Source: an uncultured Candidatus Saccharibacteria bacterium
GTDB lineage: Bacteria > Patescibacteriota > Saccharimonadia > Saccharimonadales > UBA4665
Direction of reading: 5' to 3'
NCBI GenBank assembly: GCA_903839515.1
Contig: CAIMCP010000072.1
Location: forward strand, 1 to 44,690
DNA length: 44,690 nucleotides
Under the pieces are notes generated by a model. That model did not search any database, was not told the DNA's origin, and was given only the letters and a program-made list of their open reading frames with translations. The translations under genes and the position numbers were made by a program. Positions 1 through 28,048 of the stretch are shown piece by piece; within the stretch, counting starts at the first letter, position 1, and each line of letters begins with the position of its first letter.

Positions 1-2027
1 CCAACATATCCACCAATACTCATGCTGTAATTAGCACTTTCCACAGGTGTTACGCTTTTATCTGACAGGGTTGCTACAATCATAGCAACCGATGTTGCTC
101 CACAACCATTTGCACAAATTGTGCCCTTACCTGAAGGACTACTGTCGTAATGGGCGTTTGCCCATTTAGGATCACACTGATCGTAGAAGACAAAGTTTGC
201 TACCCCTGATCCTCCGCAACCACTAGAAGAAGCTGCTGTTTGACTACTTGGTACACCCCCAGCTTTCGTAAGCCAGCTAGCAAAATCAGGAGCCGATGAA
301 TAATCTATTTTAACACCACTAATTAGGCCTTTCTTATCAAGCGTTCCTGTTTTTACTGCACTATCTATCTGATTTCCATAGGACGCATAAGTCAATCCAC
401 CATTACCCGCTGGAGCTACATTTAACGAGGGATCGCTTTTATTTGGAAATGCTTTAGTAGCGGAAGGTTGGTACCAATTTATTGCCATCCAAAAAGGATC
501 GTTATTAAATTGTTTAGCCACAGGTATATTGGCGAGATAGGCGACCGCATCCTGAATACTTTCGGGTGCTAGATTTGCGGTAGCGTATTGCTGGGCTGGA
601 GGATAGAACTTTTTAGCGTAACCTTGCCAGGTTGCTGGAATGAATTGGTATTTACCGTAAGCCCCGTTACCACTATTGGCCGTTGGACTACCACCGCTTT
701 CATGCAAGGCTATAGCTTGCAAGAAAGCGTCTAATCCTCCGGCACTCGTTGGAGTACAAGCTGAACTACACGAAGCGTCGCTTCCACCAGGACTTACGCT
801 GGCAGTTTGAACCCCCGCAGGAGCATTAAGGAGCAAATCGTGCATTGCTTGGCCTGCTGTTGTTGTACTATCTGTGCCACTAATAAATGGGGCATCTGTC
901 GAAGGTTTAGCGAAACCTATCTCAAGCCAACCCGCAGGAGCAGCAGAACCATTTTCGTTAGGTGCTTTGTTAGTGTAAGCGATTAATTGGCCTGCTATAA
1001 CATGCTGATTAACAACTGACGGTATAACATGAACGTGTCCATAGTAAATCCAATCCGATGGACCACCGATAGATGTATCTAATTTTTCAACAGGATAATC
1101 GTTTCCGAATCCACCAGGGTCGGGACTTAATTGTTTTATTGTTCCAGGCGCTATTGCATATACACCCCCACCAGGAAATGTTTGTATATCCCAACCCTCA
1201 TCAACTCTCTGGTATTGCGTTGGTGTTTTTGTAGAAAAAGGCCAAACTAATCCTCCCGCAGTAGTTGTTGTGGTAGCTACTGTGCTTGGTGCAGCTGAAC
1301 CTGCAGGTACATTAGAGGCCATTGCCGATATATCGGCAGTCACGGCTGCAGAATAACCATTTGGGTCATTGCCATCTGATGCTGGAGCATAACCTCCAGC
1401 AGATAAAACAGTGAAAATACTTGCACCAGAATCTATATATTTACCAAATTGTGCCCTAAGATATGAAGCTTGATCCCCACCTCCGGCAATATTTTGGTTT
1501 TCAGCAGCAGTATAATCTACACTAGCTTTAATTGAAGACCAATAATACCACAAGTGACTTCCTTGAAAATTAGGCTGTGATGAAGTTGCTGTTCTTCCAA
1601 ATGAGTTATTAGCATGTTGAACATTGAAATCTGAAGGACTTGCCATACTTGATTCATGGTGGGCGAAAGCAACTATTAAAAATGGACTCACATTTGAATG
1701 CTGGGCATCTGCAACAATTACCGATCCAAGCCCAGCCATTTTGCTGGCAGGATTTGTCTTGGTAATGAAACTATCTATTGATGCAGCCATTGCAGTTGGG
1801 TCAAGGTTTGGAAAAGATAGTCCTGTTGGAGTTCCTACTCCTGCAACAACCGGAGTAGTTGATGATTCGCTAGTATTACATTTTGCACCAACCCAGTCAG
1901 TATAGTTGTTAAGAGCATTTAAATCTGACCGCGACATAGGTTCAGCGGAAACGGCACTAGCCATTAATATATTGAAAACCAACATGAGGCTTATAAAACT
2001 GAGTAAATACCTTTTTATTTTATTCAA
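1..2027 (-). CDS. Secreted multi-domain peptidoglycan hydrolase (VirB1/PrgK/CwlT functional class); C-terminus lies beyond the window edge
   Basis: This ORF is absent from the ORF track because it runs off the window. I translated it by hand from TTG at 2027, which overlaps the TGA of the upstream gene; GGAGG lies 6 nt upstream. There is no in-frame stop over 675 codons. The N-terminus MNKIKRYLLSFISLMLVFNILMASAVSA looks like a signal peptide. Four modules follow: FLIVAFAHHESSMAS..NNSFGR (glucosaminidase/FlgJ-like); WPF..DEGWDIQ..YYGHVHV..GQLIAYT (LytM/M23-like, first His not conserved); ALHESGGSPTANSGNGAYGKYQFIPATW (lysozyme-like transglycosylase); QCDPKWA..GTICANGCGATSVAMIV (C39/CHAP-like Cys peptidase). 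Confidence 0.8.
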   Translation of the reverse strand, partial: MNKIKRYLLSFISLMLVFNILMASAVSAEPMSRSDLNALNNYTDWVGAKCNTSESSTTPVVAGVGTPTGLSFPNLDPTAMAASIDSFITKTNPASKMAGLGSVIVADAQHSNVSPFLIVAFAHHESSMASPSDFNVQHANNSFGRTATSSQPNFQGSHLWYYWSSIKASVDYTAAENQNIAGGGDQASYLRAQFGKYIDSGASIFTVLSAGGYAPASDGNDPNGYSAAVTADISAMASNVPAGSAAPSTVATTTTTAGGLVWPFSTKTPTQYQRVDEGWDIQTFPGGGVYAIAPGTIKQLSPDPGGFGNDYPVEKLDTSIGGPSDWIYYGHVHVIPSVVNQHVIAGQLIAYTNKAPNENGSAAPAGWLEIGFAKPSTDAPFISGTDSTTTAGQAMHDLLLNAPAGVQTASVSPGGSDASCSSACTPTSAGGLDAFLQAIALHESGGSPTANSGNGAYGKYQFIPATWQGYAKKFYPPAQQYATANLAPESIQDAVAYLANIPVAKQFNNDPFWMAINWYQPSATKAFPNKSDPSLNVAPAGNGGLTYASYGNQIDSAVKTGTLDKKGLISGVKIDYSSAPDFASWLTKAGGVPSSQTAASSSGCGGSGVANFVFYDQCDPKWANAHYDSSPSGKGTICANGCGATSVAMIVATLSDKSVTPVESANYSMSIGGYV

Positions 2028-4735
2028 TTTCCACCTCCAAGATTTTGTTGCTGAGAGTCGGTTAATAAGCTAGTGTCATATACTGCTCCGGCAGCTCCAG
2101 TGGTAGATTTAATTAATAAACATGCATTTACTGAGTTATTAACTCCCTGCTGAGTATTCGGATCAATAGAATTTGTTGCTGCGTCATTCCAAGAATTATC
2201 TTTCCTATATGCTTGGGCTGCGTTATCTGAACAATTGTCATCCCAATATTGCTGAGGATCATCTGGTATTGATCCGTCTGGATAACCGTACTGTGTAATA
2301 CCAAATGGGTCACCCTGGAAACTAGGAGCCGCGAAGGCTTTTCTTGGGTTAATTATTGAAGAGAAGGAACTAGATAATTTATTAAAAGGATTGCTAATAA
2401 AACTAGATATTGTATCTTGAACAGTTGCTCCAAAACTATTAAAAGGTATACTCATAGAAATTGAAGAAACTAAAGAGAACCTACTGTCTGTGTTAAATAT
2501 TTTAGCCATAAATGATTGTTGGTTGAAATCTGACAACTCCTGATTGTATTCGTCATTCATTATTTTAGCAGTTTGTTGAGTGGTTAGGGCTTGACCTCCA
2601 AGCGTTGAGTGCGCATTATCGTTACCGGCAACATCAGCACCGGCGGCTATACTATTAAATGTTCTGCCACCACTCATATTTAGTCCTACTGTCTGAGGTA
2701 TTAGATAATTTACTACCGCCTCAACTATAGGGTTTATGGCTTTGCTTATTAGGCCTTTAGTTTGACAATAAAGAGGTAATATTGGCCCAAACGCGAATTG
2801 TAGCCCAGTAGGTAGGCTGCAGGCAGTATCCGCGACGCCAGTTAGCTTATTAGCAAAAAAACTTATTATGTCTTGAGCGCCACTAATTACCGCACCGATT
2901 GAGTTGGTCCAAATATCTGCAATAGCCTTAATAGCAGCTCCTGCGCCCGTTTTGAACCATTCAGATATTGCGTTTGCGATACCGTTACCTGCAGCAAAAT
3001 TCTCCTCATTACAGACTAATTGTCCGCTTGGAACAGGCTTACCATCATTACATATATACTTAGATGTTTTGTCTGTAGTTGACGTTGAAGCTGCAAAAAT
3101 TTTAGGAGATAATAGCGCGTCTGCAATGGTTGGAGATACAGTTGCTGTTTTTGGTGCAGGACTACCACCCAATAAGTTTGAATAAAGAGGGCTTTGTTCT
3201 GCTCCAGCCGTACCACCAATTAATGAATTCGTGGTATCGTCAACCTGACTTTTTGAAGCTGGGCCTAATGCACTGGTAAAACTCCCAACTTCAGCAGCAG
3301 TAACATGACCTGTGTGTATTTCGCTAGCTAAGGAACTATACATTCCCCAGGTTGCAACGGCCGAAGCAGAGTTAATAATATAGCCCAGTGCCCTAACTTT
3401 TGGTCCTGCGTGAGCTGCAAATTGAACAATTTCAGCAACCAAATTTATTTGCCCTACGAGCGGAACAGCTTTTCCTGCGGCTTCACCAGCTCCCTTACCT
3501 GCAAGCTCTGTAACAATTCTCTTAACTAAGTCCTTTGTAAAACCACCCTCGCTGTTAATTCTTTCAAGCTCTTTAGATAAATCTTCGATTGAGGTAAAAC
3601 CTAGTTTCGACAAAAGAGAGTCTAAAACCTTAGTGTTATCCTTTTCCAGTTTTGAACTAGCTCTACCGTTTTCCCCATCAGTATTCGATGGATTACTAGG
3701 ATCGTCAGGAGTTGTTGTTTCTGGCTTTGAAGGGTCACACTTTGGATCTATTAGACAAGTAACAGCCCCGCCCATAATAGAGGACCTTGGCGTTATAATT
3801 CTATTTACAAGAAACAATTTTGCGGCCACTTTCTGATCACTTATATTTTTAAAAAGAGGATCACTTATTTTGCAGAAAAATAAACACCTTCTGACGCCGT
3901 ATTTCTTTTCTAGTAACCTACCAACTTGGAATCTAGTATAAACTTTTTTGAAACCAGTTTCGTTAGCAGTCGCATCCCTAACAGCTTTTCTAACTCCGGC
4001 ATTATCAGAGCCTACAAAAATACTGTCAAAATAAATCCCTTCAGGCCCTAAATTTCTAATTGAATTACCAGGTGTTTTTAGTTGTAATTCACCACCACCA
4101 CTTATTTTAAATTCAACTCCGTATTTAGTAGCCAGCTTATTTTCTAATTTGTTATCCTTCCAGGTGTTAAATAATTTACTAACGGGTCCACCTTTTGTAT
4201 TTGCTTTTGCAGTACAGTTTTTATCAATAGTATTTCCACAATGTCCCTGATAGCCTGGAATAACTTGATCTTGGATATATTTTTTCAACAAATTATCTGT
4301 TTCTTTTTGAAGTGCTTGGTTGCCAGAAGCATAAAAATGACTCTTCAGGTTTTGGATAATGTGCTCAATCTTTAAAGGTATTAGCATTAAAAACATAGAA
4401 ACAACAAGAGCTGCAAGGCCACCAGCGGCACCACCACCAATAGCTATATTTTTTCTATTTTTTTTAACCGCACCAAACATTTTCTTGCCCATTATAGAGG
4501 CCCCGCCAGCAATAGAACTAGCCGCCGCTGGATTTGTGGTTTCGCTCTTCGAACCTGTACCAGAAACTAATCCACCAGCGGCACCACCAGTAAGCTTCTC
4601 TTTGTCTTCAAGACTTTTCGGACTAGATGAAGTCGGCTTAGTGGTATTAGATCCACTTTCCATAGCTTGAAGATTTGGTCGAGTAACCGGTGTTTGATCT
4701 TCTTTGTCGTATACACCGTTTGATTGACTTTCCAT
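2024..4735 (-). CDS. 903-aa membrane-anchored protein of the T4SS operon, function unknown
   Basis: Long ORF in the operon, with a 4-nt overlap to the hydrolase gene and a 7-nt gap after virB4. The first ~100 aa are Ser/Gly/Thr-rich and look disordered. A single TM follows (IAIGGGAAGGLAALVVSMFLMLIPL), then ~770 aa of Cys-containing, presumably extracytoplasmic sequence. I recognise no family motif. Confidence 0.75.
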   Translation of the reverse strand: MESQSNGVYDKEDQTPVTRPNLQAMESGSNTTKPTSSSPKSLEDKEKLTGGAAGGLVSGTGSKSETTNPAAASSIAGGASIMGKKMFGAVKKNRKNIAIGGGAAGGLAALVVSMFLMLIPLKIEHIIQNLKSHFYASGNQALQKETDNLLKKYIQDQVIPGYQGHCGNTIDKNCTAKANTKGGPVSKLFNTWKDNKLENKLATKYGVEFKISGGGELQLKTPGNSIRNLGPEGIYFDSIFVGSDNAGVRKAVRDATANETGFKKVYTRFQVGRLLEKKYGVRRCLFFCKISDPLFKNISDQKVAAKLFLVNRIITPRSSIMGGAVTCLIDPKCDPSKPETTTPDDPSNPSNTDGENGRASSKLEKDNTKVLDSLLSKLGFTSIEDLSKELERINSEGGFTKDLVKRIVTELAGKGAGEAAGKAVPLVGQINLVAEIVQFAAHAGPKVRALGYIINSASAVATWGMYSSLASEIHTGHVTAAEVGSFTSALGPASKSQVDDTTNSLIGGTAGAEQSPLYSNLLGGSPAPKTATVSPTIADALLSPKIFAASTSTTDKTSKYICNDGKPVPSGQLVCNEENFAAGNGIANAISEWFKTGAGAAIKAIADIWTNSIGAVISGAQDIISFFANKLTGVADTACSLPTGLQFAFGPILPLYCQTKGLISKAINPIVEAVVNYLIPQTVGLNMSGGRTFNSIAAGADVAGNDNAHSTLGGQALTTQQTAKIMNDEYNQELSDFNQQSFMAKIFNTDSRFSLVSSISMSIPFNSFGATVQDTISSFISNPFNKLSSSFSSIINPRKAFAAPSFQGDPFGITQYGYPDGSIPDDPQQYWDDNCSDNAAQAYRKDNSWNDAATNSIDPNTQQGVNNSVNACLLIKSTTGAAGAVYDTSLLTDSQQQNLGGGN

Positions 4736-4742
4736 ATTTACC

Positions 4743-6647
4743 CTAATTAATTGAGTTAGTTGATCCTGGAGCTAAAGTATTTGTAAGGTCTATGGTTCCC
4801 TCTTGGTATCCGCCAGCCGGCTGATTAGGATTAGTATTAACTAGATTCATCTCGGTTTGAGAGGCAACTACCTGAATATGTACGTGATTGGGCCCCGCAA
4901 AGAATAAGCCTTGTCCAACTGGGAATTGGCTTAGTCTTTTCTTCTCTTCCTCGGTTAATTTAAATACATCGGCAAGCACATCTACCGACGATGGAGACTG
5001 TTTGAAAAGAAGCTGCATAGAAGCATTGGCAACAATTGCCCGCCCCATTCGACTACCCATAAAGTCTTCGACGTCTTGGCTAATTGTAGTAATGCCAAGA
5101 TTATATTTTCTAGCCCTTTTAGCAAGAGAGAAAATAAAGTTAGCTGAATCTTCGTATTTCATGAGTTGCCAAGCTTCATCAATTATTAGCAGACGCTTCT
5201 TCTTATCCGACTTGGTTCTATTCCATATGTAGTTTAGGACAATGTACATAGCAACTGGTCTGAGTTCATCTTCAAGGTCTCTTACGTTAAAGACTACAAA
5301 TGGATTATCTATACTTATATTGCTTTGTTGAGAAAAAATACCTGCGAATGTACCAGTTGTGTATTTACGAATTCTTTGTGCAAGCTGAGGACCTGATCCG
5401 CCCATATGCAGTAACGTGTCATATAGATCAGCAATGGTTGGTGGAATTGTATTCTGGGTAAGTGGATCATTGGTTATGCCAGCCTTTGCATAAGTTTCAA
5501 TTAGGGCTGTATCTAAGTCAGACTCTTCAATTGGATTAAGCGCTGGAGAGACTGAATTATTGCCTCCTACGAGCTGTGCCTGAGCCCCACCCATCATAAG
5601 TCTAAGTAATCCGTGAAGCATGATTAAGTTACTTCTAAGTGCGTTATCTGCCTCCTCAGTGTCAATAACTTTAGGTAGATCAAATGGGTTAATTCTAGTA
5701 CTTGAGCTAAGGCTTAGTCTGACATATGCGCCGGCAACTGAGTCTGCAAGTTTTTGGTATTCGTTTTCAGGGTCAATTATAATAACTTCTGTACCAAACA
5801 TCATACTTCTAAGAGCTTCAAGTTTAACTGCAAAGGACTTTCCGGCTCCAGATTTAGCAAAGACAACCGAATTACCATTTTCTAGACTAAATCTGTCGAA
5901 TATAACAAGCCCAGAGTTATGCATATTAATTCCATAAAGGATTCCATTGTCTTGGCTTAAATTGGCACTAGTAAATGGAAAACTCGTAGATAGTGCACCT
6001 GTATTCATGTTACGTCTAATTTGCATTTCATCCACAAATTGAGGAACTACAGTATTAAGACCTTGTTCTTGTTGTGATGTTCCAGGCTTTGAATAAATTA
6101 GACCTTGTCCAAGCATTGTTTCAACCTTATGTGAAACAAACTCTAGCTCATCCATATCATTTGCATAAACATTGAAATAAAGTCCAAACCTAAAGAATCT
6201 TTCTTCTCCAACTTGAAGTTTGTCTCGCATTTCTTCGGCGTCCTGAATGGCTGCTTGTTTACCCGGATCTCTAACCTTGCCTTTTTCGGCATCAATTTGA
6301 ATTCCGGCTTCGAGTTGAGTCACCTTTTTTCTAAGATTCTGCATAACTATTTGGCTGGCAACAGGATAGATATAAATACTAATATCTATTACTTCATCAA
6401 TGTTAACTAGGCCGCTCAACCAGCCAGTATTAATTTGTCTTGGGTATCCATAAACATAGTAGCTTCTAGCAAGCCTTGTACCGATTCGGAAATAGTTACT
6501 TTGAAGCTCAATTGAACTTGGGGCAATGAAATCACGAAGGGCTGTAATGCCTTTTTGGAAAGCCATCATCACTTCTTGCTGTTCTTGTCGTTTTTGGTTT
6601 TCGGCTAATACCAGTGGATCAACTTTTTTATTCCCAAAAGCCATCAC
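4743..6647 (-). CDS. virB4: VirB4/TrsE-type T4SS ATPase
   Basis: Walker A is VVFAKSGAGKSFAVK and Walker B is KKRLLIIDEAWQLM, followed by ITTISQDVEDF. The N-terminal segment IAPSSIELQSNYFRIGTRLARSYYVYGYPRQINTGWLSGL..IDISIYIYP is typical of monoderm VirB4 proteins. Confidence 0.9.
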   Translation of the reverse strand: MMAFGNKKVDPLVLAENQKRQEQQEVMMAFQKGITALRDFIAPSSIELQSNYFRIGTRLARSYYVYGYPRQINTGWLSGLVNIDEVIDISIYIYPVASQIVMQNLRKKVTQLEAGIQIDAEKGKVRDPGKQAAIQDAEEMRDKLQVGEERFFRFGLYFNVYANDMDELEFVSHKVETMLGQGLIYSKPGTSQQEQGLNTVVPQFVDEMQIRRNMNTGALSTSFPFTSANLSQDNGILYGINMHNSGLVIFDRFSLENGNSVVFAKSGAGKSFAVKLEALRSMMFGTEVIIIDPENEYQKLADSVAGAYVRLSLSSSTRINPFDLPKVIDTEEADNALRSNLIMLHGLLRLMMGGAQAQLVGGNNSVSPALNPIEESDLDTALIETYAKAGITNDPLTQNTIPPTIADLYDTLLHMGGSGPQLAQRIRKYTTGTFAGIFSQQSNISIDNPFVVFNVRDLEDELRPVAMYIVLNYIWNRTKSDKKKRLLIIDEAWQLMKYEDSANFIFSLAKRARKYNLGITTISQDVEDFMGSRMGRAIVANASMQLLFKQSPSSVDVLADVFKLTEEEKKRLSQFPVGQGLFFAGPNHVHIQVVASQTEMNLVNTNPNQPAGGYQEGTIDLTNTLAPGSTNSIN

Positions 6648-7468
6648 ACACCTCCTTGGATGTTTGGTTTAGGCGCTACGCCACTACCCTTTTCAATTAC
6701 GTCGGCAGTTAAGCTATCAATTGGAAGAAGTGGTTGAGCAACGGCAGTATCGGGGTTGTAAACGTTATAGTAAAGCTCTATTAGCTCCTGTGTGTCTAGT
6801 GGAAGACCTTTGACTCCACACTGCTGAAGTCCTTGAATTGTTGCCTGGACTCTGTTTCGTAGTTCATTTTTAGCAGCCTCGAGACTAGCCTCGTCAACTA
6901 CTACATGTTTTTCTTTGTTGCCAAATAATTCCGAAAAGCCTGTTAGGAAATTTCGGCTTCCTGAGGTAATATTTTTCTTTATCTCAGGGCCTGGAAAGAA
7001 AGGCACCACTACATAGAAGTCCTTATCCATAATATTGGTCTGGCTACTTATTTGATCTATGAAGCCAATATAGTCATCCATAAGCATAGACAAAAGCATA
7101 TTATCTTGCTGGTGTTTTAAATTGTCTAACTTTTCTATGTAGCTCGACAAGTTAACCTGAACTGAATGAATAAAGATTTGGACTGGAAAATACAAGGAAT
7201 TTAAAAACCCCTGATAGCTAAACTCGACAGCTTCCTGTTCTCTTTGGCTCATAAGGTCAAAATTAATTGCCTTACACATAATTACGGCCCTATATGAGGC
7301 ATCGCCCATGATAGCAATACCATCTCTTATTTCGGCGATTTTAAGCAAGTTCTGTGTACTATTGATATTAGACTTAGCTTTTCCAGCTGTCTGTGTTGAG
7401 ACTGTAGGAGCACCGGGTGCCTGGACTGGATTTGCGCCTGCTTGATTTGGATAAGAAGAAGGATTCAT
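6644..7468 (-). CDS. 274-aa T4SS operon protein resembling the extreme N-terminal module of monoderm VirB4 ATPases
   Basis: AAGGGGTGG SD-like sequence upstream; the stop overlaps the virB4 start (ATGA). The segment IAEIRDGIAIMGDASYRAVIMCKAINFDLMSQREQEAVEFSYQGFLNSLYFPVQIFI resembles, from memory, the first ~100 aa of long Tn916/ICEBs1-type VirB4 proteins. There is no TM segment. The N-terminal ~45 aa are low complexity. Confidence 0.6.
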   Translation of the reverse strand: MNPSSYPNQAGANPVQAPGAPTVSTQTAGKAKSNINSTQNLLKIAEIRDGIAIMGDASYRAVIMCKAINFDLMSQREQEAVEFSYQGFLNSLYFPVQIFIHSVQVNLSSYIEKLDNLKHQQDNMLLSMLMDDYIGFIDQISSQTNIMDKDFYVVVPFFPGPEIKKNITSGSRNFLTGFSELFGNKEKHVVVDEASLEAAKNELRNRVQATIQGLQQCGVKGLPLDTQELIELYYNVYNPDTAVAQPLLPIDSLTADVIEKGSGVAPKPNIQGGV

Positions 7469-7517
7469 TTATTTCTTTGCCACCCCTTAGCGGTAATAAT
7501 TATTATTTCTAACTAAC

Positions 7518-8549
7518 TTAGTGAAGGTTAATAACAACCTCATCATCTAACCCAGACTGATCTTTTTTATTAGCTTCATGCGCAATCGTAGAAACATAAA
7601 GATCGTTGCTGCTAGCCATATTAATTATAGCAGGGTCAGGAGTGTGTGTCATCTTATTAACAGGAGCGCTTTGGGTCATTTTTTCTTCCTTTTTTTGCTC
7701 AGATAAAGGTCGTACAATTCTTAAATTACTGTTGTACTCTTTTTGAATTCTTTCGTGCTTTGCGGCCAATTCCTCACTAATAGCTTTTTCTTGTTCAGGA
7801 GTATATGTATTTTCCATATAACTCGGTCTAACTAGGGGCGTATTAGTAACACTAGGGCCCGAGAACCAGCTAGTATTATGGTTGCCAGTATTCTTATTTT
7901 TTAACGATTCTTCAATTTCTTTTCTATGTTTTTCGGTAGCTTCGCGGATTTTCTCGGTGAACTTGAACGCTGTTGCATTATTCTTTTCGTCTAAGACATC
8001 GTCATTAGCTTTAATTTCAGCCGCAGGAGCCTCTATTTCCATGCTACCGGGCGCCAATCTGTCCTCACTTACTATAACCGGCTGTGCGACTGCCTCGGGA
8101 GCCGTAAATAGGTTTACATTGACATTTTTAGTTGCCCATCCTCTAGTGTCTATTGTTTCAGCAAGAACTTTTAGTCTTCCCTGTACTTCTTCTTGAGTAA
8201 GCCCATTAGTATATTGAATTTGAACTTTTTTTGGAGCCGTTATTGTCACTAGATTTTTTATTCCACTTTGATTCCATATTCTTTTATGGGGGTAGATAAA
8301 ATACTTCAGTTTAGCTAGCGCCCAAATTTCAGTAGGTTGATCCCTACCCCATGGAACAGCAAAGAATACAGAAAACATAACGATTGGCAAGAAAACTACT
8401 AGTAGAAAGGCGGCATGTTTGGCATATACAATATAGCTTAAATAAAGAAACGCTACGGCTATACATCCAAAGATAAACTGAACCGCAGACAACGGCCCTA
8501 TTAGCTTATCTTCTGCTTCTATATCTTGGATTACTTTATATGTTGCCAT
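7518..8549 (-). CDS. PrgI/VirB3-like membrane protein with a long hydrophilic C-terminal extension
   Basis: The N-terminus MATYKVIQDIEAEDKLIGPLSAVQFIFG followed by two TM helices matches the PrgI-family pattern. I took ATG at 8549 as the start (AAGGA upstream) rather than the track's TTG at 8552. About 240 aa of charged, non-membrane tail follows. Confidence 0.7.
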   Translation of the reverse strand: MATYKVIQDIEAEDKLIGPLSAVQFIFGCIAVAFLYLSYIVYAKHAAFLLVVFLPIVMFSVFFAVPWGRDQPTEIWALAKLKYFIYPHKRIWNQSGIKNLVTITAPKKVQIQYTNGLTQEEVQGRLKVLAETIDTRGWATKNVNVNLFTAPEAVAQPVIVSEDRLAPGSMEIEAPAAEIKANDDVLDEKNNATAFKFTEKIREATEKHRKEIEESLKNKNTGNHNTSWFSGPSVTNTPLVRPSYMENTYTPEQEKAISEELAAKHERIQKEYNSNLRIVRPLSEQKKEEKMTQSAPVNKMTHTPDPAIINMASSNDLYVSTIAHEANKKDQSGLDDEVVINLH

Positions 8550-8570
8550 CAATCATTGTCCTTAGATTAT

Positions 8571-11500
8571 TTAGGGATTATTCTGACCATTTCCACCATT
8601 GTTTGTTGGTGGGAGATTATCTCTAATTAAGTCAGCGTTTGCTTCGGCCACGTCAGCATTTTCGTAACTCATGAATTTACCCGATGGAGTTCTGGGTCTG
8701 CCACTCGAGTCTATATCTATGATGTCATCAGACCATCTAGGATATGTAGGTGGAGTCGGTGGTGCAGGAGGAGCTGGTGGTGGAGTCGGTGGTGCAGGAG
8801 GAGCTGGTGGTGGAGTCGGTGGTGCAGGAGGCAGCCCACCAACGACCCTAACATCATCGCTTGCCCTTCTAGCTTGTGCGACTGCCTGAGTATATGCCGG
8901 ACTTGGAGGTCCTGCAACGCCACCAGGTGCAGCACTACCTGCAAATGCTTGATATCCAGCATCGCCCGCAATAAAGCTTGTTATGTGCCCTAAGCCCTCT
9001 GTCGCTGCTGTCCTTTGGTCTGGTGAAGCTGTCGCACTACTAATTATTCCCTGAAGTTCCTCCTGAGCTTGAGCTACTGCTGCATATTCTGCAACACCAG
9101 CTCCGGGCTTACTAGCGGCTTCAGCGGCACCTTGACCCTGGGCAATAAAAGCTGATGGTTTATTGTTAAGATAGGCAGTCTTATCTTGTCGAGAAACAGC
9201 TTTAATTGGATTGTACTCCACGCTAGTATCGCCAAGATGGCCAAATCCTGCCGCACCAAGTGCGCCCTTAGCTGCTATAAGTTTTTGCGAAGCAACACCA
9301 TAATTATCGTCATTCGTATCAAGAACAGTTCTCCCTTGAGCATCTGTGGTGTAATCACAACCAGTTGATCTAGCAACATCTCTCACTAGCCTATCATGTC
9401 CAATTCCTGGATCCTCACCAGAGTCTGTGTTGTATCCATACCCAGCGGCAACTTTTTGAGCAAGAAATGCATCACCAGTTCCTGCGCTCTGTCTAATTTG
9501 ACGTGCCGCAGCCACTGCACCCGCTGCGGCGCCCCCATTTGCGGTCGCTAGTCTATTTAATTCGAATTCGCCTTGTTGTCTCGACATTGCTCCGGTGGCC
9601 ATGGCTGACATAATAATTCCCGCATCATTATAGTCTGCATTGCCTTTCCACTGCTCGTTGATTGGATTGCTGGCAAGCTCTTGAGCGCCTGCAGCTCCTG
9701 TTCTTGCAGATCTTCTAATCGCAGCACCGCCCCCCCCATGTCTTAGTCTGGTCCCTATTGCACCAACTGAAGTACCGTTCTGTTCTCGTCCAGCTTGTGC
9801 TCTTCTTCTGGCGGTGTTGTAGCGACTATTAGGATCTCTTGGATCGCCTCTAAGTGATTTGTTGGCCCAATCAGCACCCTTCTTAGTCATGCCACTAACT
9901 TGAGAAATTACTCCTCCAGAAATTTTGAAAGCAAAAGGTATAAGAAAGAGCGGTATAATTCCAGCGATTATGCCTAAAATTTGGTTCCAAGAATTATCAG
10001 AAGAAAGACTTCCAAAAACTACTGCCGTAACATTGGCAATCGCTATAACCAGCATTACAACTGGATATACTACTAGGGTTTTTATTAAAAGATCCCACCA
10101 TTTTTTAAAATATTGTTCAGTGTTTGGTAGACAATATAGCGCAAAAGCAATAGGCGCTGTTATGGTTAGGAATATAATTAAGCCCTGTCTAATGACTATG
10201 GTAATGAGAACGCCAATGACCGCCAATATGGCTGGAACGGCTATTGTCAATAGCAGGAATCCAATACCGTCCCCAATAATACCAATAAGCAGAAGTGTTG
10301 CGGCTCCACCACCCGCAAGAGTTGTGAGTATTCCCGTCCCACCGCCAACCATAATGTGCCAAACTCCCGCAGCTAGAAAAGGTTGCTTTATTAGGTCGTA
10401 AACACCAGCGCCTAAGATATTAAATACATCAATCATAATCGCAACGACATATATCGATAGATTGATTAAAATAACAGCAACCAATATTCTTGGAATCATC
10501 TTTTTTATCGTATAGTTTGCAACCATCCCACCGCCAATTGCCTCAACAAGTACTGCAATCAAAAGAGCTATAATTAGGAAAAGGTTTCCATATATTCTAA
10601 AGTTTGCCCAAACATTAAAAATACACCCGCTGTTATCGTTTGGGCTACAAGTCGTACTAAAGTTTATTGGAGTGACTTTGAGTAAAGATGCCACTTCGTT
10701 TTCTATCGTAGATTCTAAGCCAGTAATACCGTCAAAAACAGCACAGGTTATCCACGAAAGAGGACCACCACTACTTAAGCAATCCTCGGAGGATGTAGGT
10801 CCACCACCCGAATTAGATGTTGAACCTGTTGACGCTGGAATCGGTACGGATGGGCTTGAGCCAGGAGTTCCTAGAACAGCTATTACAAAACCACCATTGG
10901 CATTAACGGTAGAAGGAGATCCATTAGTATAGCCAATTTGACCATAGCCTAGCAGATCTAAATAGCATGATGGAGAATAAGGAATTTTTGCTGGCGTTAT
11001 TGTAGTAGGGCTTGATTTTATTGGATAGAACGTAGCAGTACCGTTTTTGTAAACAATTATAGATGAACAGGGAGTACCAACAAGTGAGTAAACATCCCCG
11101 GCAGAGCTAATTTTTTTATCCTGATTAAATTTATTTCCTCCATTCATATTCACAATACTTGTTCCGCTAAACTCGTAGGTATATTTAGAGTTATTGCCGT
11201 CACCAATATTGATTATCGTCGTAGTCTCTGGCTGACAGCCACCGTTTCCAGTTCCAGCTCCACCCAAAAGCCACTGGGCTCTAAATTGACCACCTGCAGA
11301 TGTGCTGGCTCCAGTTCCGCCAGGAGTTGCATTTATTATTGCGTGTGAACTAGCACAAGCTGGTTTGTCGCTTGTATATTCACCCGTACCACCCGTGTAA
11401 TAGTCGTAAGCTCCATTTTTATCTATAAATTTAATAGTAGACTTATCTGGAAGTGTGCCTACGATTGTATAGGCACTTTGCCACTTAAAATCAATTGCTT

Positions 11501-11621
11501 TAACCCCAGTTTTGAAGCTTGTGAATGTTAAATCAGCAAAGGAAACCGCTTTTCCTGTAAAAACAAAAAACAGTAAGGCCAGTACTAAACTCGACGATAG
11601 AATTAATAATTTTTTTTTCAT
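8571..11621 (-). CDS. VirB6/TrbL-like polytopic channel protein with large N-terminal ectodomain and Ala/Gly/Pro-rich C-terminal tail
   Basis: Signal peptide MKKKLLILSSSLVLALLFFVFTGKAVSFA, then a ~330-aa Cys-containing domain. Next comes a block of roughly 7-8 hydrophobic helices (about aa 340-590). The last ~420 aa are an Ala/Gly-rich tail ending in PPAPPTPPPAPPAPPTPPPAPPAPPTPPT. It is the first gene of the operon. Confidence 0.75.
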   Translation of the reverse strand: MKKKLLILSSSLVLALLFFVFTGKAVSFADLTFTSFKTGVKAIDFKWQSAYTIVGTLPDKSTIKFIDKNGAYDYYTGGTGEYTSDKPACASSHAIINATPGGTGASTSAGGQFRAQWLLGGAGTGNGGCQPETTTIINIGDGNNSKYTYEFSGTSIVNMNGGNKFNQDKKISSAGDVYSLVGTPCSSIIVYKNGTATFYPIKSSPTTITPAKIPYSPSCYLDLLGYGQIGYTNGSPSTVNANGGFVIAVLGTPGSSPSVPIPASTGSTSNSGGGPTSSEDCLSSGGPLSWITCAVFDGITGLESTIENEVASLLKVTPINFSTTCSPNDNSGCIFNVWANFRIYGNLFLIIALLIAVLVEAIGGGMVANYTIKKMIPRILVAVILINLSIYVVAIMIDVFNILGAGVYDLIKQPFLAAGVWHIMVGGGTGILTTLAGGGAATLLLIGIIGDGIGFLLLTIAVPAILAVIGVLITIVIRQGLIIFLTITAPIAFALYCLPNTEQYFKKWWDLLIKTLVVYPVVMLVIAIANVTAVVFGSLSSDNSWNQILGIIAGIIPLFLIPFAFKISGGVISQVSGMTKKGADWANKSLRGDPRDPNSRYNTARRRAQAGREQNGTSVGAIGTRLRHGGGGAAIRRSARTGAAGAQELASNPINEQWKGNADYNDAGIIMSAMATGAMSRQQGEFELNRLATANGGAAAGAVAAARQIRQSAGTGDAFLAQKVAAGYGYNTDSGEDPGIGHDRLVRDVARSTGCDYTTDAQGRTVLDTNDDNYGVASQKLIAAKGALGAAGFGHLGDTSVEYNPIKAVSRQDKTAYLNNKPSAFIAQGQGAAEAASKPGAGVAEYAAVAQAQEELQGIISSATASPDQRTAATEGLGHITSFIAGDAGYQAFAGSAAPGGVAGPPSPAYTQAVAQARRASDDVRVVGGLPPAPPTPPPAPPAPPTPPPAPPAPPTPPTYPRWSDDIIDIDSSGRPRTPSGKFMSYENADVAEANADLIRDNLPPTNNGGNGQNNP
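8749..8830. repeat. Perfect 30-bp tandem repeat (about 2.7 copies) inside the VirB6-like CDS
   Basis: The plus-strand unit ggtggagtcggtggtgcaggaggagctggt occurs at 8749-8778 and 8779-8808, and partially at 8809-8830. It is in frame (10 codons) and encodes the PPAPPAPPTP repeats. Confidence 0.9.
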
Positions 11622-11752: not shown

Positions 11753-11781
11753 TTGATTTACTGGCCTTCAGTATATATAGT
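11753..11781 (+). promoter_or_regulatory. Candidate sigma70-type promoter of the pilin array
   Basis: TTGATT (11753-58), a 17-nt spacer, then TATAGT (11776-81). The ATG at 11790 lies 8 nt after the -10, with no SD in between. Confidence 0.4.
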
Positions 11782-11789
11782 AAAACCTA

Positions 11790-12224
11790 ATGATTAAGCA
11801 TAAAAAACATAAAAACTTCACGATGAGAAAAACGTTTGTAGCTTTTTTTTGCTTATTCTTTCTTTCTATTGTCCCCGCAACCCCAGCTTTCGCCGGAAAG
11901 GTTTGTGGTGGTGGGCCTCAGCCAAATGGCGGTGACCCCTATCCGTCAACCACCACTGCAATCGATTTAGGCTGTACCGGAAAAGGAAACCCTATCATGG
12001 ATATGTTGTTTGGAGTTATTAGATTTTTGGCAGCTGGTGTTGGAGTTGTGATAATAGGATCAACAATTTTTGCTGGCGTTCAATACGCAACCGCGAGAGA
12101 TAGCCCAGAGGCCGTCCAGAAAGCTAAAGGCAGGATTATATCTAATTTAATGGCACTTCTCCTCTATATATTTGGCTATGCCCTTCTCAACTTCCTAATA
12201 CCGGGAGGGTTCTTTAACAGATGA
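11790..12224 (+). CDS. VirB2/TrbC-type T4SS pilin-like protein, paralog 1
   Basis: Signal peptide ending PAFA|G, a variable segment with 2 Cys, then two TM helices flanking a short polar loop (QYATARDSPEAVQKAKGRII). An alternative start is ATG 11823 (MRKTF). Confidence 0.7.
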   Translation: MIKHKKHKNFTMRKTFVAFFCLFFLSIVPATPAFAGKVCGGGPQPNGGDPYPSTTTAIDLGCTGKGNPIMDMLFGVIRFLAAGVGVVIIGSTIFAGVQYATARDSPEAVQKAKGRIISNLMALLLYIFGYALLNFLIPGGFFNR

Positions 12225-12589
12225 TTAATCTTCTAACATCTTTCGCAGATTCTACCTGCACATTTAGTGGAGGCGCTTTCTTGACACTACCGCACTGGTA
12301 TCAGTATTTGAGCGGTACGATGGTTAATAATGTCTGCAGCCCCCAAATTCAAGGTATTAACGATATTTGGCTTATTGTCCTTGCCGTTACAGAGATGCTA
12401 CTTCAGCTAGTTGCGCTTATTGCTATCATAATGGTTATTTATGGAGGTGTTCAAATGCTTACAAGTCAAGGGCAGCCAGATGGCATAGCTAAAGCAAGGA
12501 CGACAATTATTAATGCACTTATTGGAATGACGATATCTATTGCCGCAGCAGCCATAATAACATTCTTGGCGGGGAATATTGGCGGATGA
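12221..12589 (+). CDS. VirB2/TrbC-type pilin-like protein, paralog 2 (no obvious signal peptide)
   Basis: ATGA overlap with paralog 1. Two Cys in the N-terminal segment, then TM - QMLTSQGQPDGIAKARTTIINAL - TM. Confidence 0.65.
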   Translation: MINLLTSFADSTCTFSGGAFLTLPHWYQYLSGTMVNNVCSPQIQGINDIWLIVLAVTEMLLQLVALIAIIMVIYGGVQMLTSQGQPDGIAKARTTIINALIGMTISIAAAAIITFLAGNIGG

Positions 12590-12912
12590 TAGGAATACTT
12601 AACACCTTTCACCAATTAGCAGCATCGGGAACAGCTGCGGTCAATAGTTGTGGAACCGGAAACTGTAGTATTGGCATCCCAACGGTTGGTGCCAATAATG
12701 GATCGCTAACATCAATTCTGCAAATCGTTTTTGGAATAATTGGATCAGTCGCAGTTCTTATCATAGTATTAGCTGGGCTTCAGCTAATTACATCTGGCGG
12801 AAATCCTGAATCAGCCAAAAAAGCCAGAGAGACAATTATATATGCCGTTGCGGGACTGGTGATTGTAGTAAGTGCCGAAATTATAGTCACCTTCTTCCTG
12901 GGAAAATTGTAA
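12586..12912 (+). CDS. VirB2/TrbC-type pilin-like protein, paralog 3 (no obvious signal peptide)
   Basis: ATGA overlap with paralog 2. CGTGNC pair, then TM - LQLITSGGNPESAKKARETIIYAV - TM. Confidence 0.65.
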   Translation: MIGILNTFHQLAASGTAAVNSCGTGNCSIGIPTVGANNGSLTSILQIVFGIIGSVAVLIIVLAGLQLITSGGNPESAKKARETIIYAVAGLVIVVSAEIIVTFFLGKL

Positions 12913-12914
12913 TT

Positions 12915-13304
12915 ATGAAAAAATACCTATCAATTCTTTTAATACCATTATTTATACTCTCATTTAGTACAAATGTTTTTGCGGTAGATTTGCTCGCAAA
13001 CACATGCGCCAATGCAAACTCTAATCAGCCAGGTTCAGCTCCAGGTATCTGCAGAGATAACCAGACCAACTCCACCACAAATCCAATCTATTCAATCTTC
13101 AAAACTGTACTAAACCTTCTATCTTATGCAATTGGCTTTATATCTGTAGTTGTAATAATAATTGCAGGACTAAGGATGATTTTATCCGGAGGAGATCCGC
13201 AAACGCTGAATTCAGCCAGGAACGCAATTATTTATGCAGCTGGAGGAATAGTAATTGCTGCAATCGCTCAAATAATTGTAGTTTTTGTACTAAGCAGGTT
13301 TTAA
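12915..13304 (+). CDS. VirB2/TrbC-type pilin-like protein, paralog 4
   Basis: Signal peptide ending NVFA|V, 2 Cys, then LLSYAIGFISVVVIIIAGLRMILSGGDPQTLNSARNAIIYAAGGIVIAAIAQIIVVFVL. Confidence 0.75.
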   Translation: MKKYLSILLIPLFILSFSTNVFAVDLLANTCANANSNQPGSAPGICRDNQTNSTTNPIYSIFKTVLNLLSYAIGFISVVVIIIAGLRMILSGGDPQTLNSARNAIIYAAGGIVIAAIAQIIVVFVLSRF

Positions 13305-13320
13305 TACTATAATTAACAAT

Positions 13321-13728
13321 ATGAGAAATATAATACACAAACTTAAAATTCCAATAATTACCTTCACGATAATGATGAGCTTTGGCGTGGCCTCTAGCTC
13401 TTTAGCATTTGCGAGCCCTTTTAACAGCGCCACCAATTCTGTGTGTAACGGCGCCGCAATAAATGGTACTGGTCAATGTTCAGGAAATACAAGCCAGACC
13501 AGCCTTAATAATGTTTTAAAAACAGTACTTAACATACTGTCATTTGTTGTTGGATTTGTCGCAGTTCTTATGATTATTATAAGTGGTTTTAGGATAATTG
13601 TTTCAGGCGGCGACACGAATTCATTTAATAGCGCCAAAAATGGACTTTTGTACGCCGTAATTGGTATTGTTATTGTTGCAATATCTCAAGTCATAGTTCA
13701 GTTTGTTCTAACAAATGCTACAAAATAA
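13321..13728 (+). CDS. VirB2/TrbC-type pilin-like protein, paralog 5
   Basis: Signal peptide ending LAFA|S, 2 Cys, then ILSFVVGFVAVLMIIISGFRIIVSGGDTNSFNSAKNGLLYAVIGIVIVAISQVIVQFVL. Confidence 0.75.
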   Translation: MRNIIHKLKIPIITFTIMMSFGVASSSLAFASPFNSATNSVCNGAAINGTGQCSGNTSQTSLNNVLKTVLNILSFVVGFVAVLMIIISGFRIIVSGGDTNSFNSAKNGLLYAVIGIVIVAISQVIVQFVLTNATK

Positions 13729-13805
13729 AATACTATTGCTTAACTTGAGTTAAATATGATATATAATTAGATAAAGAAATTTAAAATTCGAAAGGCCAAT
13801 AAGAA

Positions 13806-14228
13806 ATGATTAAATCACTAAAATATAAACTATTTACACTAGCAACCGGTATTGCTTTACTGCTTCCGCTAGGTTTCAGTAGCCTTGCATATGCCCAAGG
13901 CTTTGATCAACAGAATGCATTTAAATCGCAAGGATGTTCAGGAACACAGGCCGGCGGAACAACAACATGCGCTAACGCAGGTACAAGCCTAAACACCTTA
14001 ATTAAAAATATATTGAATGTTCTATCTTATGTCGTTGGTGTCGTTGCCGTTATTATGATTATTATAGCTGGATTTAGGTACATTGTATCTGGTGGTGAAT
14101 CGGGCGGTGTTACGGGGGCCAAGAACGCAATTCTATTCGCAATCGTAGGCATAGTTATAGTGGCAATCGCTCAAATAATTGTTCAGTTTGTACTTACAAA
14201 GTCAACTGCAACCACATCTACTCCTTAA
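13806..14228 (+). CDS. VirB2/TrbC-type pilin-like protein, paralog 6
   Basis: Signal peptide ending LAYA|Q, 2 Cys, then VLSYVVGVVAVIMIIIAGFRYIVSGGESGGVTGAKNAILFAIVGIVIVAIAQIIVQFVL. It shares the 19-nt string caatcgctcaaataattgt with paralog 4. Confidence 0.75.
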   Translation: MIKSLKYKLFTLATGIALLLPLGFSSLAYAQGFDQQNAFKSQGCSGTQAGGTTTCANAGTSLNTLIKNILNVLSYVVGVVAVIMIIIAGFRYIVSGGESGGVTGAKNAILFAIVGIVIVAIAQIIVQFVLTKSTATTSTP

Positions 14229-14248: not shown

Positions 14249-14278
14249 AAAAAAGGCTCGTGCTAGCGAGCCTTTTTT
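14249..14278. terminator. Bidirectional intrinsic terminator between the pilin array and hsp20
   Basis: aaaaaaGGCTCGtgctagCGAGCCtttttt. The GC stem is at 14255-60 and 14267-72. It is flanked by an A-run and a T-run, so it reads as hairpin plus U-tract on both strands. Confidence 0.75.
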
Positions 14279-14828: not shown

Positions 14829-14857
14829 AGTATATCTATGTTTATGAAAATGAGCAA
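14829..14857 (-). promoter_or_regulatory. Candidate hsp20 promoter
   Basis: On the minus strand: TTGCTC (14857-52), a 17-nt spacer, then TATACT (14834-29). Confidence 0.4.
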
Positions 14858-14937
14858 CTAGTCATTTAGATATTTACAACACAATAATTACAACATTGCT
14901 GATATTTTATTTTATACAATGAAATTTTAGGAATTCT

Positions 14938-15209: not shown

Positions 15210-16310
15210 ATGATTAAGAGCATCAAAAAAAAATTTACCAATGCCTACAGCTACTGTATAGCCCGTGAATGGCTTCTAGCCCTACTCTTAACTCTCACAA
15301 TAGTAGTTATTGGAATTACGATATCGTTAATTGCTCACCCGTTCATGTCATTAAACATGGAACCAACAGCCAGAAACCTAGCCGATCCAAATGTCTCCAT
15401 TCACTATTTAGCAAATTGGGACGGAGTCAGATATATGGAGGTTGCTTCACAGGGCTACCATGATAGCTTTGTAACCGGTTTTTTCCCGCTTTATTCAATT
15501 CTTATCTCTTTGCTGGAAAAAATTATTGGATCATACTTGGCGAGCGGTTTAATAATTGCCTGGATTTCATTGGTCGGAGCAATTTATTACTACATAAAGA
15601 TTATTAAGCTATATTTTAAGGTTAATAATCTAAATGCAGTAAAAGCTAGCCTTTTGTTTGTCCTTTTTCCGTCGGCCGTTTATCTAATGTTACTTTATAC
15701 TGAAAGCCTATTCGCATTCTTATCTCTTGGGGCCATATACTACGCCCTCAAGGGAAAATATTGGCAAGCAGGTATATTTACTGCTTTCGCAACTGCAACC
15801 CATATCACAGGCCCTTTTTTAGTTATTCTCATCGGCCTCATATTGATTGAGGAAAAGGTTAAGTTGTTGAATGTAGTAAAAGCCATGGCTCTTGGGTGCG
15901 TAGGCCTAATAGCCTATATGATTTATCTATATAGAAATTTCAATAATCCACTTGAGTTTATTGTTGCTCAAGAGACTCACGGCTGGCTCCACTATACTTT
16001 TATGCAACAAGTCGGTCGCATCAACTTGATTGAATGGGCTATGTTAATTTTAGTTATCATAACCACTATTTACTGGTGGAAAAGAAGAAAGAGTTTCGCT
16101 ATTTACTCCGGACTTAACCTGCTTATCCCTTTCGTTGGTGGACAGTTCGGAGGGTTTCCTCGGTACTGCTTGATGATCTTCCCTATCCAATTTATGATCT
16201 ACGATATTTTTAGAAGACACCCCAAAACACTAAACTCAACGATTATATTTTTTGGATTTTGTTGGTCCTGGATATTAATTTTATTTACTGCTGGATATGT
16301 CGTTAGTTAA
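15210..16310 (+). CDS. Polytopic GT-C-type (PIG-V/mannosyltransferase-like) membrane glycosyltransferase
   Basis: About 9-10 hydrophobic helices. The first loop carries NWDGVRYMEVASQGY, the WD..Y..IA..GY signature of PIG-V-like GT-C enzymes. Confidence 0.55.
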   Translation: MIKSIKKKFTNAYSYCIAREWLLALLLTLTIVVIGITISLIAHPFMSLNMEPTARNLADPNVSIHYLANWDGVRYMEVASQGYHDSFVTGFFPLYSILISLLEKIIGSYLASGLIIAWISLVGAIYYYIKIIKLYFKVNNLNAVKASLLFVLFPSAVYLMLLYTESLFAFLSLGAIYYALKGKYWQAGIFTAFATATHITGPFLVILIGLILIEEKVKLLNVVKAMALGCVGLIAYMIYLYRNFNNPLEFIVAQETHGWLHYTFMQQVGRINLIEWAMLILVIITTIYWWKRRKSFAIYSGLNLLIPFVGGQFGGFPRYCLMIFPIQFMIYDIFRRHPKTLNSTIIFFGFCWSWILILFTAGYVVS

Positions 16311-27989: not shown

Positions 27990-28048
27990 TTAGTAAATAA
28001 TAACATCAGATAAGGGATTTGACCACAACGGAGGTTCACGTGAAATAT

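Follow-up and report, generated by a model that had tools for sequence, protein, structure and literature searches.

The type IV secretion system (T4SS) belongs to a small number of machines that Saccharibacteria are known to require for their epibiotic life (PMC11665869). In Southlakia epibionticum ML1 this system includes six T4SS pilin genes, SEML1_0014-0019, all of which were scored essential by transposon-insertion sequencing (Tn-seq; PMC10633639, Cell 2023). They are PF18895 genes of 132, 185, 103, 126, 127 and 138 aa; the VirB6-like, PrgI, VirB4 and hydrolase genes lie on the other strand, there is an 83-nt gap before the last pilin, and a convergent Hsp20 gene and a tRNA-Ser come after the array (PMC10633639). 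SEML1_0006 is a lysozyme-like and cysteine proteinase gene, SEML1_0024 is a further, non-essential pilin of the same organism, and the system has no recognisable relaxase or coupling protein (PMC10633639). Here we analyse an array of six such pilin genes, which we call pil1 to pil6 in their order of transcription, at positions 11790-14228 of contig CAIMCP010000072.1 (assembly GCA_903839515.1) from an uncultured Candidatus Saccharibacteria bacterium; the whole stretch of 44,690 nt that was analysed is referred to below as the window. The array is the counterpart of a known kind that has already been described, and what can be added concerns the identity of its six members, their probable roles and the way in which they vary between strains.

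Arrays of this kind are widespread. According to a recent survey, 441 VirB2 arrays of 2-11 genes occur in 383 Patescibacteria assemblies, near virB4 and most commonly in Saccharimonadia and Microgenomatia; their members have low mutual identity (mean 25%, maximum 54%), a diversity which is read there as possible versatility towards hosts (PMC12102498, Microb Genom 2025). The amino-acid identity among the window paralogs, 30-48%, lies within this range. The statement in the initial annotation of this DNA that T4SS loci usually carry one pilin therefore holds in general, but multi-pilin arrays are documented as typical of these two groups (PMC12102498). In the accessible part of the survey there is no report of positional orthology, of a promoter at position 6, of Cys pairs or of strain hot spots, all of which we describe below. 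A second relevant system is that of the Enterococcus faecalis plasmid pCF10, whose PrgF is an essential VirB2-like protein; in the published model it forms a tube that sits on a VirB6 pentamer (bioRxiv 10.64898/2025.12.18.695078).

The six consecutive plus-strand open reading frames (ORFs) that had been read as pilin paralogs were confirmed, each at the coordinates originally assigned to it. The first, pil1 (11790-12224, 144 aa), is the most divergent paralog, with a signal peptide, an N-terminal segment (N-segment) containing a Cys pair and a two-helix core; its start at 11790 is backed by the conserved N-terminus MI(K/S)xKK(H/Y)K in locus L083. It is followed by pil2 (12221-12589, 122 aa), which is without a Sec-type signal peptide and whose N-segment cysteines are C13 and C39, and by pil3 (12586-12912, 108 aa), the shortest paralog, with a short N-segment and no signal peptide. 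Then come pil4 (12915-13304, 129 aa), with a signal peptide ending in VFA, the pair C31/C46, the two-helix core and no C-terminal tail; pil5 (13321-13728, 135 aa), with a signal peptide ending in AFA, the Cys loop C-NGAAINGTGQ-C and the core; and pil6 (13806-14228, 140 aa), with a signal peptide ending in AYA, the Cys loop C-SGTQAGGTTT-C, the core and a short S/T-rich C-terminal tail. ATGA overlaps link pil1 to pil2 and pil2 to pil3, as had been noted, and the remaining gaps are 2 nt (pil3/pil4), 16 nt (pil4/pil5) and 77 nt (pil5/pil6). The common core aligns in all six, as a hydrophobic helix, a loop of the form (S/T/A)xG(G/Q/D)xxxxxxA(K/R) and a second hydrophobic helix. The division into four proteins with predicted signal peptides (pil1, pil4, pil5 and pil6, each with a basic n-region, a hydrophobic h-region and an AFA, VFA or AYA motif) and two without (pil2 and pil3) could be reproduced, the calls being made by eye together with a crude hydropathy scan. 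Each paralog has exactly two cysteines in the stretch that leads from the signal peptide, or the N-terminus, to helix 1, and its core is free of Cys; a third Cys of pil1 is located within its signal peptide.

That these are VirB2/TrbC-like T4SS pilins, as had been proposed from the letters of the sequence, is backed both by searches with hidden Markov models (HMMs) and by gene context. The Pfam model PF18895 (T4SS_pilin) matches all six paralogs, well outside what chance would give, with E-values from 5e-14 to 5.5e-4 and scores of 20.4, 29.3, 52.6, 37.4, 42.3 and 47.3 bits for pil1 to pil6, so that pil2 to pil6 exceed its gathering score of 26.6 bits and pil1 falls below it. With PF04956 (TrbC/VirB2; gathering score 27.9 bits) pil6 passes at 30.6 bits, pil5 (26.5), pil3 (24.8) and pil4 (19.3) stay below, and pil1 and pil2 have no match. 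Nevertheless, pil1 belongs with the other five, since an alignment of the position-1 orthologues matches the pil6 family profile in hhalign with a probability of 99.2% and an E-value of 1.1e-19. The NCBIfam model NF045849 (Mbov_0395 family) also matches all six over the two-helix core (E-values 1.5e-7 to 1.2e-3), with scores of 18-31 bits that are under its curated cut-off of 40; the six are thus relatives rather than members of that family. The arrangement that characterises VirB2/TrbC proteins, in which a short polar loop containing a basic residue connects two long hydrophobic helices, is found in all six aligned cores, and an AlphaFold2 model of pil6 built with 120 homologues is a helix-loop-helix hairpin (residues 55-94 and 99-135) with a predicted local distance difference test score (pLDDT) of about 90 and a poorly defined N-segment. 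We conclude that all six products are membrane proteins of the VirB2/TrbC type, with a two-helix hairpin. As to context, the VirB4, PrgI, TrsD-like and VirB6-like genes all lie within 7 kb of the array, on the opposite strand and divergent from it.

The locus is collinear with SEML1_0006-0020 of S. epibionticum in a comparison of gene order, strands, sizes and annotations, not of aligned proteins. Gene order and strands match and sizes are similar, and both loci have overlapping genes early in the array, a spacer of about 80 nt before its last gene, a convergent Hsp20 and a tRNA-Ser. They differ in that S. epibionticum is another species, with a longer position-2 protein (185 versus 122 aa here) and with two VirB6-like genes separated by a small gene, where the window has a single one. 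We regard it as almost certain that the window array is the orthologue of the essential array SEML1_0014-0019.

The relationship of the six genes to one another becomes clear only when they are compared across species. An HMM built from the six window pilins was iterated over all ORFs of 80 loci, among which the window VirB4 finds matches of 75-92% identity and nearly all of which are labelled Saccharibacteria or Saccharimonadales. The array was present in 47 sources (46 of the loci and the window itself), 32 of which, including the window, have exactly six genes; the others have 5-9 pilin genes or an array cut by contig ends. In 32 of the loci with sufficient flank, six PF18895 genes run divergently from a VirB6-like-PrgI-VirB4 operon and are then met by a convergent Hsp20. 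When each pilin was matched by BLAST against the other species, the best match kept its position in the array in 183 of 192 cases from 32 species, that is, in 32, 32, 32, 31, 24 and 32 species for positions 1 to 6, respectively; the exceptions at position 5 (eight of the 32) all match position 6. The six genes are thus six old, non-interchangeable lineages in a fixed order. Since position-specific orthologues are kept across species, the duplications must predate the radiation of these species, and the earlier view of pil4 to pil6 as recent duplicates is wrong: their mutual amino-acid identity is just 39-48%, and even in species whose VirB4 is only about 78% identical each of the three has a separate orthologue in the corresponding array position. 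Core identity among orthologues is 39-64%, against about 79% for VirB4, and the highest value of the six, 64%, is that of pil6. The pilins evolve fast and yet keep their positional identity.

Not only the cores but also the N-segments are specific to position, each carrying a conserved motif of its own. At position 1 the motif is IDxGCxGxGNPI (IDLGCxGKGNPI in pil1), and at position 2 it is F(F/L)GxPxWYxYL, which lies between the two cysteines, is conserved across the orthologues and in pil2 reads AFLTLPHWYQYL (nt 12275-12310, residues 19-30). Exactly two cysteines are found in all 32 orthologues at position 6, in 29 at position 5 and in 26 each at positions 4 and 2; position-1 orthologues have mostly even Cys counts, from 2 to 10, and at position 3 the pair occurs in just 10 of 32. 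The suggestion that the pair stabilises an exposed loop through a disulfide gains support from this conservation and from the even counts, the bond itself remaining a prediction. A hydrophobic N-terminal peak is present in 31-32 of 32 orthologues at positions 1, 4, 5 and 6, in 11 at position 2 and in two at position 3. The position-2 protein has a Sec-type signal peptide in about one third of the species, the other position-2 proteins having a short MIxxLxxFAA-like N-terminus that is common to position 3. Position-4 pilins are without a C-terminal tail; those at position 6 carry a short tail rich in Ser, Thr, Gly, Ala and Asn after helix 2, KSTATTSTP in pil6.

Putative expression signals, found by consensus scans, also set position 6 apart. 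Across the 32 species the junctions from 1/2 to 4/5 overlap or span a few nucleotides in most cases, and junction 5/6 never overlaps, with a median length of 75 nt. In the window this spacer (13729-13805, plus strand) contains TTAACT-16-TATAAT (13740-13767), which resembles a promoter, and the Shine-Dalgarno sequence GAAAGG (13790-13795). A TGnTATAA extended -10 box precedes position 6 in 24 of the 32 species and any other position in 0-3 of them, and a Shine-Dalgarno sequence of the AAGAAAGG type precedes position 6 in 29 species and other positions in 2-14. Upstream of pil1 the best candidate is a second promoter-like site, TTGATT-17-TATAGT (11753-11781, plus strand), and no Shine-Dalgarno sequence is present. 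Only 8 nt separate the end of the TATAGT box from the start codon at 11790, so that the mRNA for pil1 to pil5 may be leaderless or have a very short leader; in several other species, too, a TATAGT-like box closely precedes the first pilin gene. A bidirectional terminator-like hairpin with a 13-bp stem (14249-14278), situated between pil6 and the convergent Hsp20, may mark the end of the transcription unit. A conserved promoter and a strong Shine-Dalgarno sequence of its own, seen only at position 6, point to pil6 as the major subunit, as do the terminator directly 3' of the gene and its top core conservation; on these predicted signals we hold the question of whether pil6 is the major subunit to be evenly poised.

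Variation between strains is concentrated in the N-termini of pil5 and pil6. In conspecific contigs, whose flanking genes are 97-100% identical with a synonymous divergence (dS) of 0.02-0.05, pil1 to pil4 are 97-98% identical to those of the window, pil5 is 84% identical (dS 0.74) and pil6 93% (dS 0.40). Mismatches are clustered in two hot spots, where they number 11-32 per 100 nt (0-4 in the background): one at 13336-13535, which covers the pil5 signal peptide and N-segment and reaches 32 per 100 nt, and one at 13836-14135, which covers the pil6 N-segment and first helix. There are three allele types, which are distinguished chiefly by the first ~25 residues of mature pil5 and pil6. The raised dS implies that divergent alleles have been imported or maintained, and that these are not merely selected point changes. 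Since strain divergence is concentrated in the N-segments and their Cys pairs and even Cys counts are conserved, these segments are probably exposed on the outside. In the VirB6-like protein the membrane core, residues 265-600, is about 98% identical between conspecific strains, and the two ends, an ectodomain in the N-terminal 260 residues and a tail in the C-terminal 400, are only about 25-30% identical. At the DNA level these ends (nt 8571-9779 and 10838-11621) do not align, as if entire modules had been exchanged.

Taken together, we think it somewhat probable that the array belongs to a chromosomal, monoderm-type (MPF-FATA-like) Saccharibacterial T4SS whose subunits co-assemble into a host-contacting structure needed for epibiotic growth, and we would put co-assembly of all six pilins, as a separate matter, at an even chance. 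Of the possibilities raised in the initial annotation, the heteropolymeric filament and the division into major and minor pilins fit best with the collinear orthologous groups, the tight packing of the genes, the signals of pil6 and the Tn-seq essentiality. In such a scheme pil1 to pil5 would be made from one transcript at similar, modest levels, and pil6 would be made separately and in greater abundance through its own promoter and strong ribosome-binding site. In the membrane, both the N-segment and the C-terminus of each protein would face outwards and the SGG(D/E)...A(K/R) loop inwards; pil1, pil4, pil5 and pil6 would be inserted via Sec, and pil2 and pil3 with no cleaved signal peptide. 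The pilins would then be extracted by the VirB4 ATPase and the VirB6-like platform and stacked into a tube across the cell wall to the host bacterium, with pil6 as the bulk of the tube and pil1 to pil5 as minor subunits, for instance for initiation, as a tip or as adaptors. The model of PrgF provides a monoderm precedent for a tube of VirB2-like subunits that stands on a VirB6 pentamer (bioRxiv 10.64898/2025.12.18.695078). Disulfide-clamped N-segments would decorate the outside, hence the differences between strains in the pil5 and pil6 N-segments, and the structure would be needed for epibiotic growth on the host. The full version of this scheme, a single heteropolymeric T4SS filament or conduit with pil6 repeating, pil1 to pil5 as a specialised minor set comparable to the minor pilins known from type IV pili and from type II secretion, and the pil5 and pil6 N-termini and VirB6 ends setting host specificity at the strain level, we consider possible but rather doubtful.

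Several points weigh against this scheme. To our knowledge, every T4SS pilus whose structure has been solved consists of copies of a single pilin, and a heteropolymer of six subunits would thus be without precedent, and no T4SS-type filament of such pilins has been reported for any Patescibacterium. The promoters, Shine-Dalgarno sequences and terminator are consensus matches only, and the essentiality of the upstream five pilins of S. epibionticum in Tn-seq could partly reflect polar effects. Structurally, the membership of these proteins would rest on a generic helical hairpin: a Foldseek search of the PDB with the pil6 model returned nothing with an E-value below 2.6, its top matches being generic helical hairpins, and a profile search of PDB sequences recovered no pilin. 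Because a bare two-helix hairpin is a weak query, we treat these PDB searches as uninformative, not as counter to the family assignment.

One may also consider that the products do not form an extracellular filament at all, and instead are integral membrane components of the translocon, in a ring or short collar in the membrane and wall around VirB6 and VirB3, with no polymer extending past the cell surface. This would agree with the failure to see a T4SS-type pilus on any Patescibacterium, with the resemblance of pil2 and pil3, which lack signal peptides, to plain two-helix membrane proteins, and with the expectation of the PrgF authors that their structure barely leaves the wall (bioRxiv 10.64898/2025.12.18.695078). 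On the other hand, disulfide-type Cys pairs and strain-variable N-segments indicate exposure to the outside, the homology is to pilins that polymerise, and the dedicated strong expression signal of pil6 suggests a building block present in many copies. We therefore regard such a collar as unlikely, though it is the most serious competitor of the host-contacting structure.

A different role for the array would be that of a repertoire for variation, in which six alternative pilins are expressed differentially or swapped by gene conversion and serve host range or evasion of defence. The N-segments do differ between paralogs, strains do differ in those of pil5 and pil6, and a reading of this sort has been suggested for Patescibacteria and proposed for the VirB2 copies of Anaplasma and Bartonella (PMC12102498). 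A 19-nt string shared by pil4 and pil6 had also been pointed out, correctly, as it has exactly two occurrences in the window, at 13261 (pil4) and 14164 (pil6). The identical run, of 19-20 nt, is longer than codon resampling would lead one to expect (P ~0.004 for this pair and 0.012 for any pair), and it is confined to conspecific contigs and absent from sister species; with P ~0.01 and a single species, we rejected it as evidence of conversion. As for homogenisation in general, pil5 and pil6 cores are 63% identical within genomes and 52% between genomes, the value within being higher in all 32 species, pil4 and pil5 cores are more alike within the genome in 26 of 32 species, and the other pairs are near 50:50. 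However, at shared residues the codon identity of pil5 and pil6 shows no extra within-genome excess over the other fourteen pairs, and no pair has a synonymous excess beyond a general effect of codon usage. The likeness of pil5 and pil6 is thus more probably due to coevolution or to old events than to recent conversion, and such coevolution we count in favour of co-assembly. A surface-variation repertoire generated by gene conversion, as once envisaged for this array, is not supported, as the paralogs do not homogenise at synonymous sites, and any form of repertoire is hard to reconcile with one-to-one positional orthology in 32 species, position-specific N-segment motifs, overlapping and translationally coupled genes, the essentiality of all six pilins in S. 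epibionticum and the lack of pseudogenes in the arrays examined; we judge it very improbable. That the six are Sec-exported effectors delivered to the host, which four predicted Sec-type signal peptides and the first labels of the TM7x equivalents ("Sec secreted array", "putative effector genes") might suggest, is hardly credible, because each of the six has a C-terminal pair of long hydrophobic helices with matches to pilin HMMs, a signal peptide is missing from two of them and the TM7x array is re-assigned to VirB2-like pilins in the 2025 survey (PMC12102498).

The rest of the T4SS locus lies to the left of the array, on the minus strand. Nearest to it is the gene for a VirB6-like polytopic membrane protein of 1016 aa (8571-11621), the presumed assembly platform for the pilins, which matches the NCBIfam model for the CD3337/EF1877 mobilome membrane protein (E 5.6e-5), has an orthologue with a weak precomputed match to PF19590 (TrbL_3) and occupies the same locus position as SEML1_0011/0013, annotated as VirB6-like. 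Beyond it are a PrgI (VirB3-like) family protein of 344 aa (7518-8552; PF12666, 29.7 bits), the counterpart of SEML1_0010, and a TrsD/TraC-like protein of 274 aa (6644-7468; NCBIfam TrsD E 2.9e-6, VirB4_plasma E 6.4e-8), which resembles the N-terminal part of VirB4 and has an orthologue with a precomputed match to PF26593 (TraC-like). The VirB4-type ATPase (634 aa, 4743-6647) matches the TraG P-loop family PF19044 (E 2e-24) and AAA_10. A Cys-rich, membrane-anchored protein of 903 aa (2024-4735) in the same operon, at the position of SEML1_0007, had no match in Pfam or NCBIfam scans. Finally, a stop-free open frame of at least 689 codons (1-2069, visible end ...GTICANGCGATSVAMIVATL...) runs past the left end of the window and is probably the cell-wall hydrolase of the system, a reading taken solely from its correspondence in position to SEML1_0006.

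The remaining genes of the window are housekeeping genes: those for valyl-tRNA synthetase, TsaD, a Mur ligase, GroEL, arginyl-tRNA synthetase (ArgRS), MscL and tRNAs. Since such genes surround the T4SS locus, the locus is chromosomal. Downstream of the array lie the convergent Hsp20 and tRNA-Ser, and an Rfam scan of the window found four tRNAs and nothing else. We looked near MscL and ArgRS for a seventh pilin corresponding to SEML1_0024 and rejected the candidates, the ORFs there encoding MsrB (SelR) and an HxlR regulator; the iterated pilin HMM recovered only the six pilins from the window. The cumulative GC skew has a minimum at about 28 kb (~27000-29000), where gene orientation switches from mostly minus to mostly plus at the divergent TsaD and Mur ligase genes. 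A replication origin might lie at this point, 14-28 kb away from the T4SS locus; a dnaA gene was not identified in the window.

The region to the right of the array varies as well. Relative to the conspecific locus L081 there are two other clusters of mismatches, at 14836-14935 and 15936-16035 (10 and 22 per 100 nt), one upstream of tRNA-Ser genes and one within a PIG-V-type mannosyltransferase gene. In another conspecific locus, L088, genes for a DpnII-like endonuclease and a D12-class methyltransferase and a 398-aa gene (5271-7845 of that locus) follow Hsp20 and replace the tRNA-Ser and mannosyltransferase genes of the window, which is a strain-specific insertion of a restriction-modification system or a rearrangement. 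In the window species a membrane mannosyltransferase-like gene and a family 2 glycosyltransferase gene lie 1-3 kb downstream of pil6; a link between these, the pil6 tail and glycosylation is speculation.

Others have already asked whether monoderms build a tube of the VirB2 type and why six different subunits should be needed for it. The comparative results sharpen these questions, as they indicate six fixed roles, not a variable repertoire, with the marks of a bulk subunit at position 6, and the exposed tips of pil5 and pil6, together with both ends of VirB6, which differ between co-existing strains, are natural candidates for host recognition. If it existed, a heteropolymeric pilus would be a new architecture for the T4SS pilin superfamily. 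The canonical VirB2, TrbC and TraA pilins of diderms (PF04956) likewise have a signal peptide and a pair of hydrophobic helices around a short polar loop that contains a basic residue, but they come from a single gene per locus, form homopolymeric pili and have no N-terminal Cys-pair segment. Some canonical pilins, namely TrbC, VirB2 and TrhA, are cyclised. PrgF, which we likened by description and not by sequence comparison, is closer in kind, being a small two-helix protein of a monoderm T4SS with the topology out-membrane-in-membrane-out, encoded next to a VirB6-like gene; PrgF and its Gram-positive plasmid counterparts occur with or without a signal peptide, as do the window paralogs. In contrast to the window, however, its plasmid-borne conjugative system has one functional pilin, where here six related pilins belong to a chromosomal system. 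Mbov_0395 of the Mycoplasma integrative and conjugative element (NF045849, an 80-residue model) is likewise a small pilin-like protein of a monoderm T4SS.

Pam pili, described in a 2026 preprint ("novel pilus system in CPR"), are donor-strand filaments of immunoglobulin (Ig) fold purified from a related Saccharimonadia bacterium; we rejected them as the product of the array, Ig-fold filaments being unrelated to these genes. Several tandem VirB2-type genes in a T4SS for host interaction are also found in Anaplasma phagocytophilum and in Bartonella (virB2 or trwL), where, according to the survey, the copies are interpreted as antigenic or host-range variants (PMC12102498), whereas those of the window are ancient collinear orthologous groups, apparently all required. 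Thus, the window array adds no new kind of system to those described from S. epibionticum and other Patescibacteria, and its orthology, position-6 signals and strain hot spots are best seen as refinements of what is known of them.

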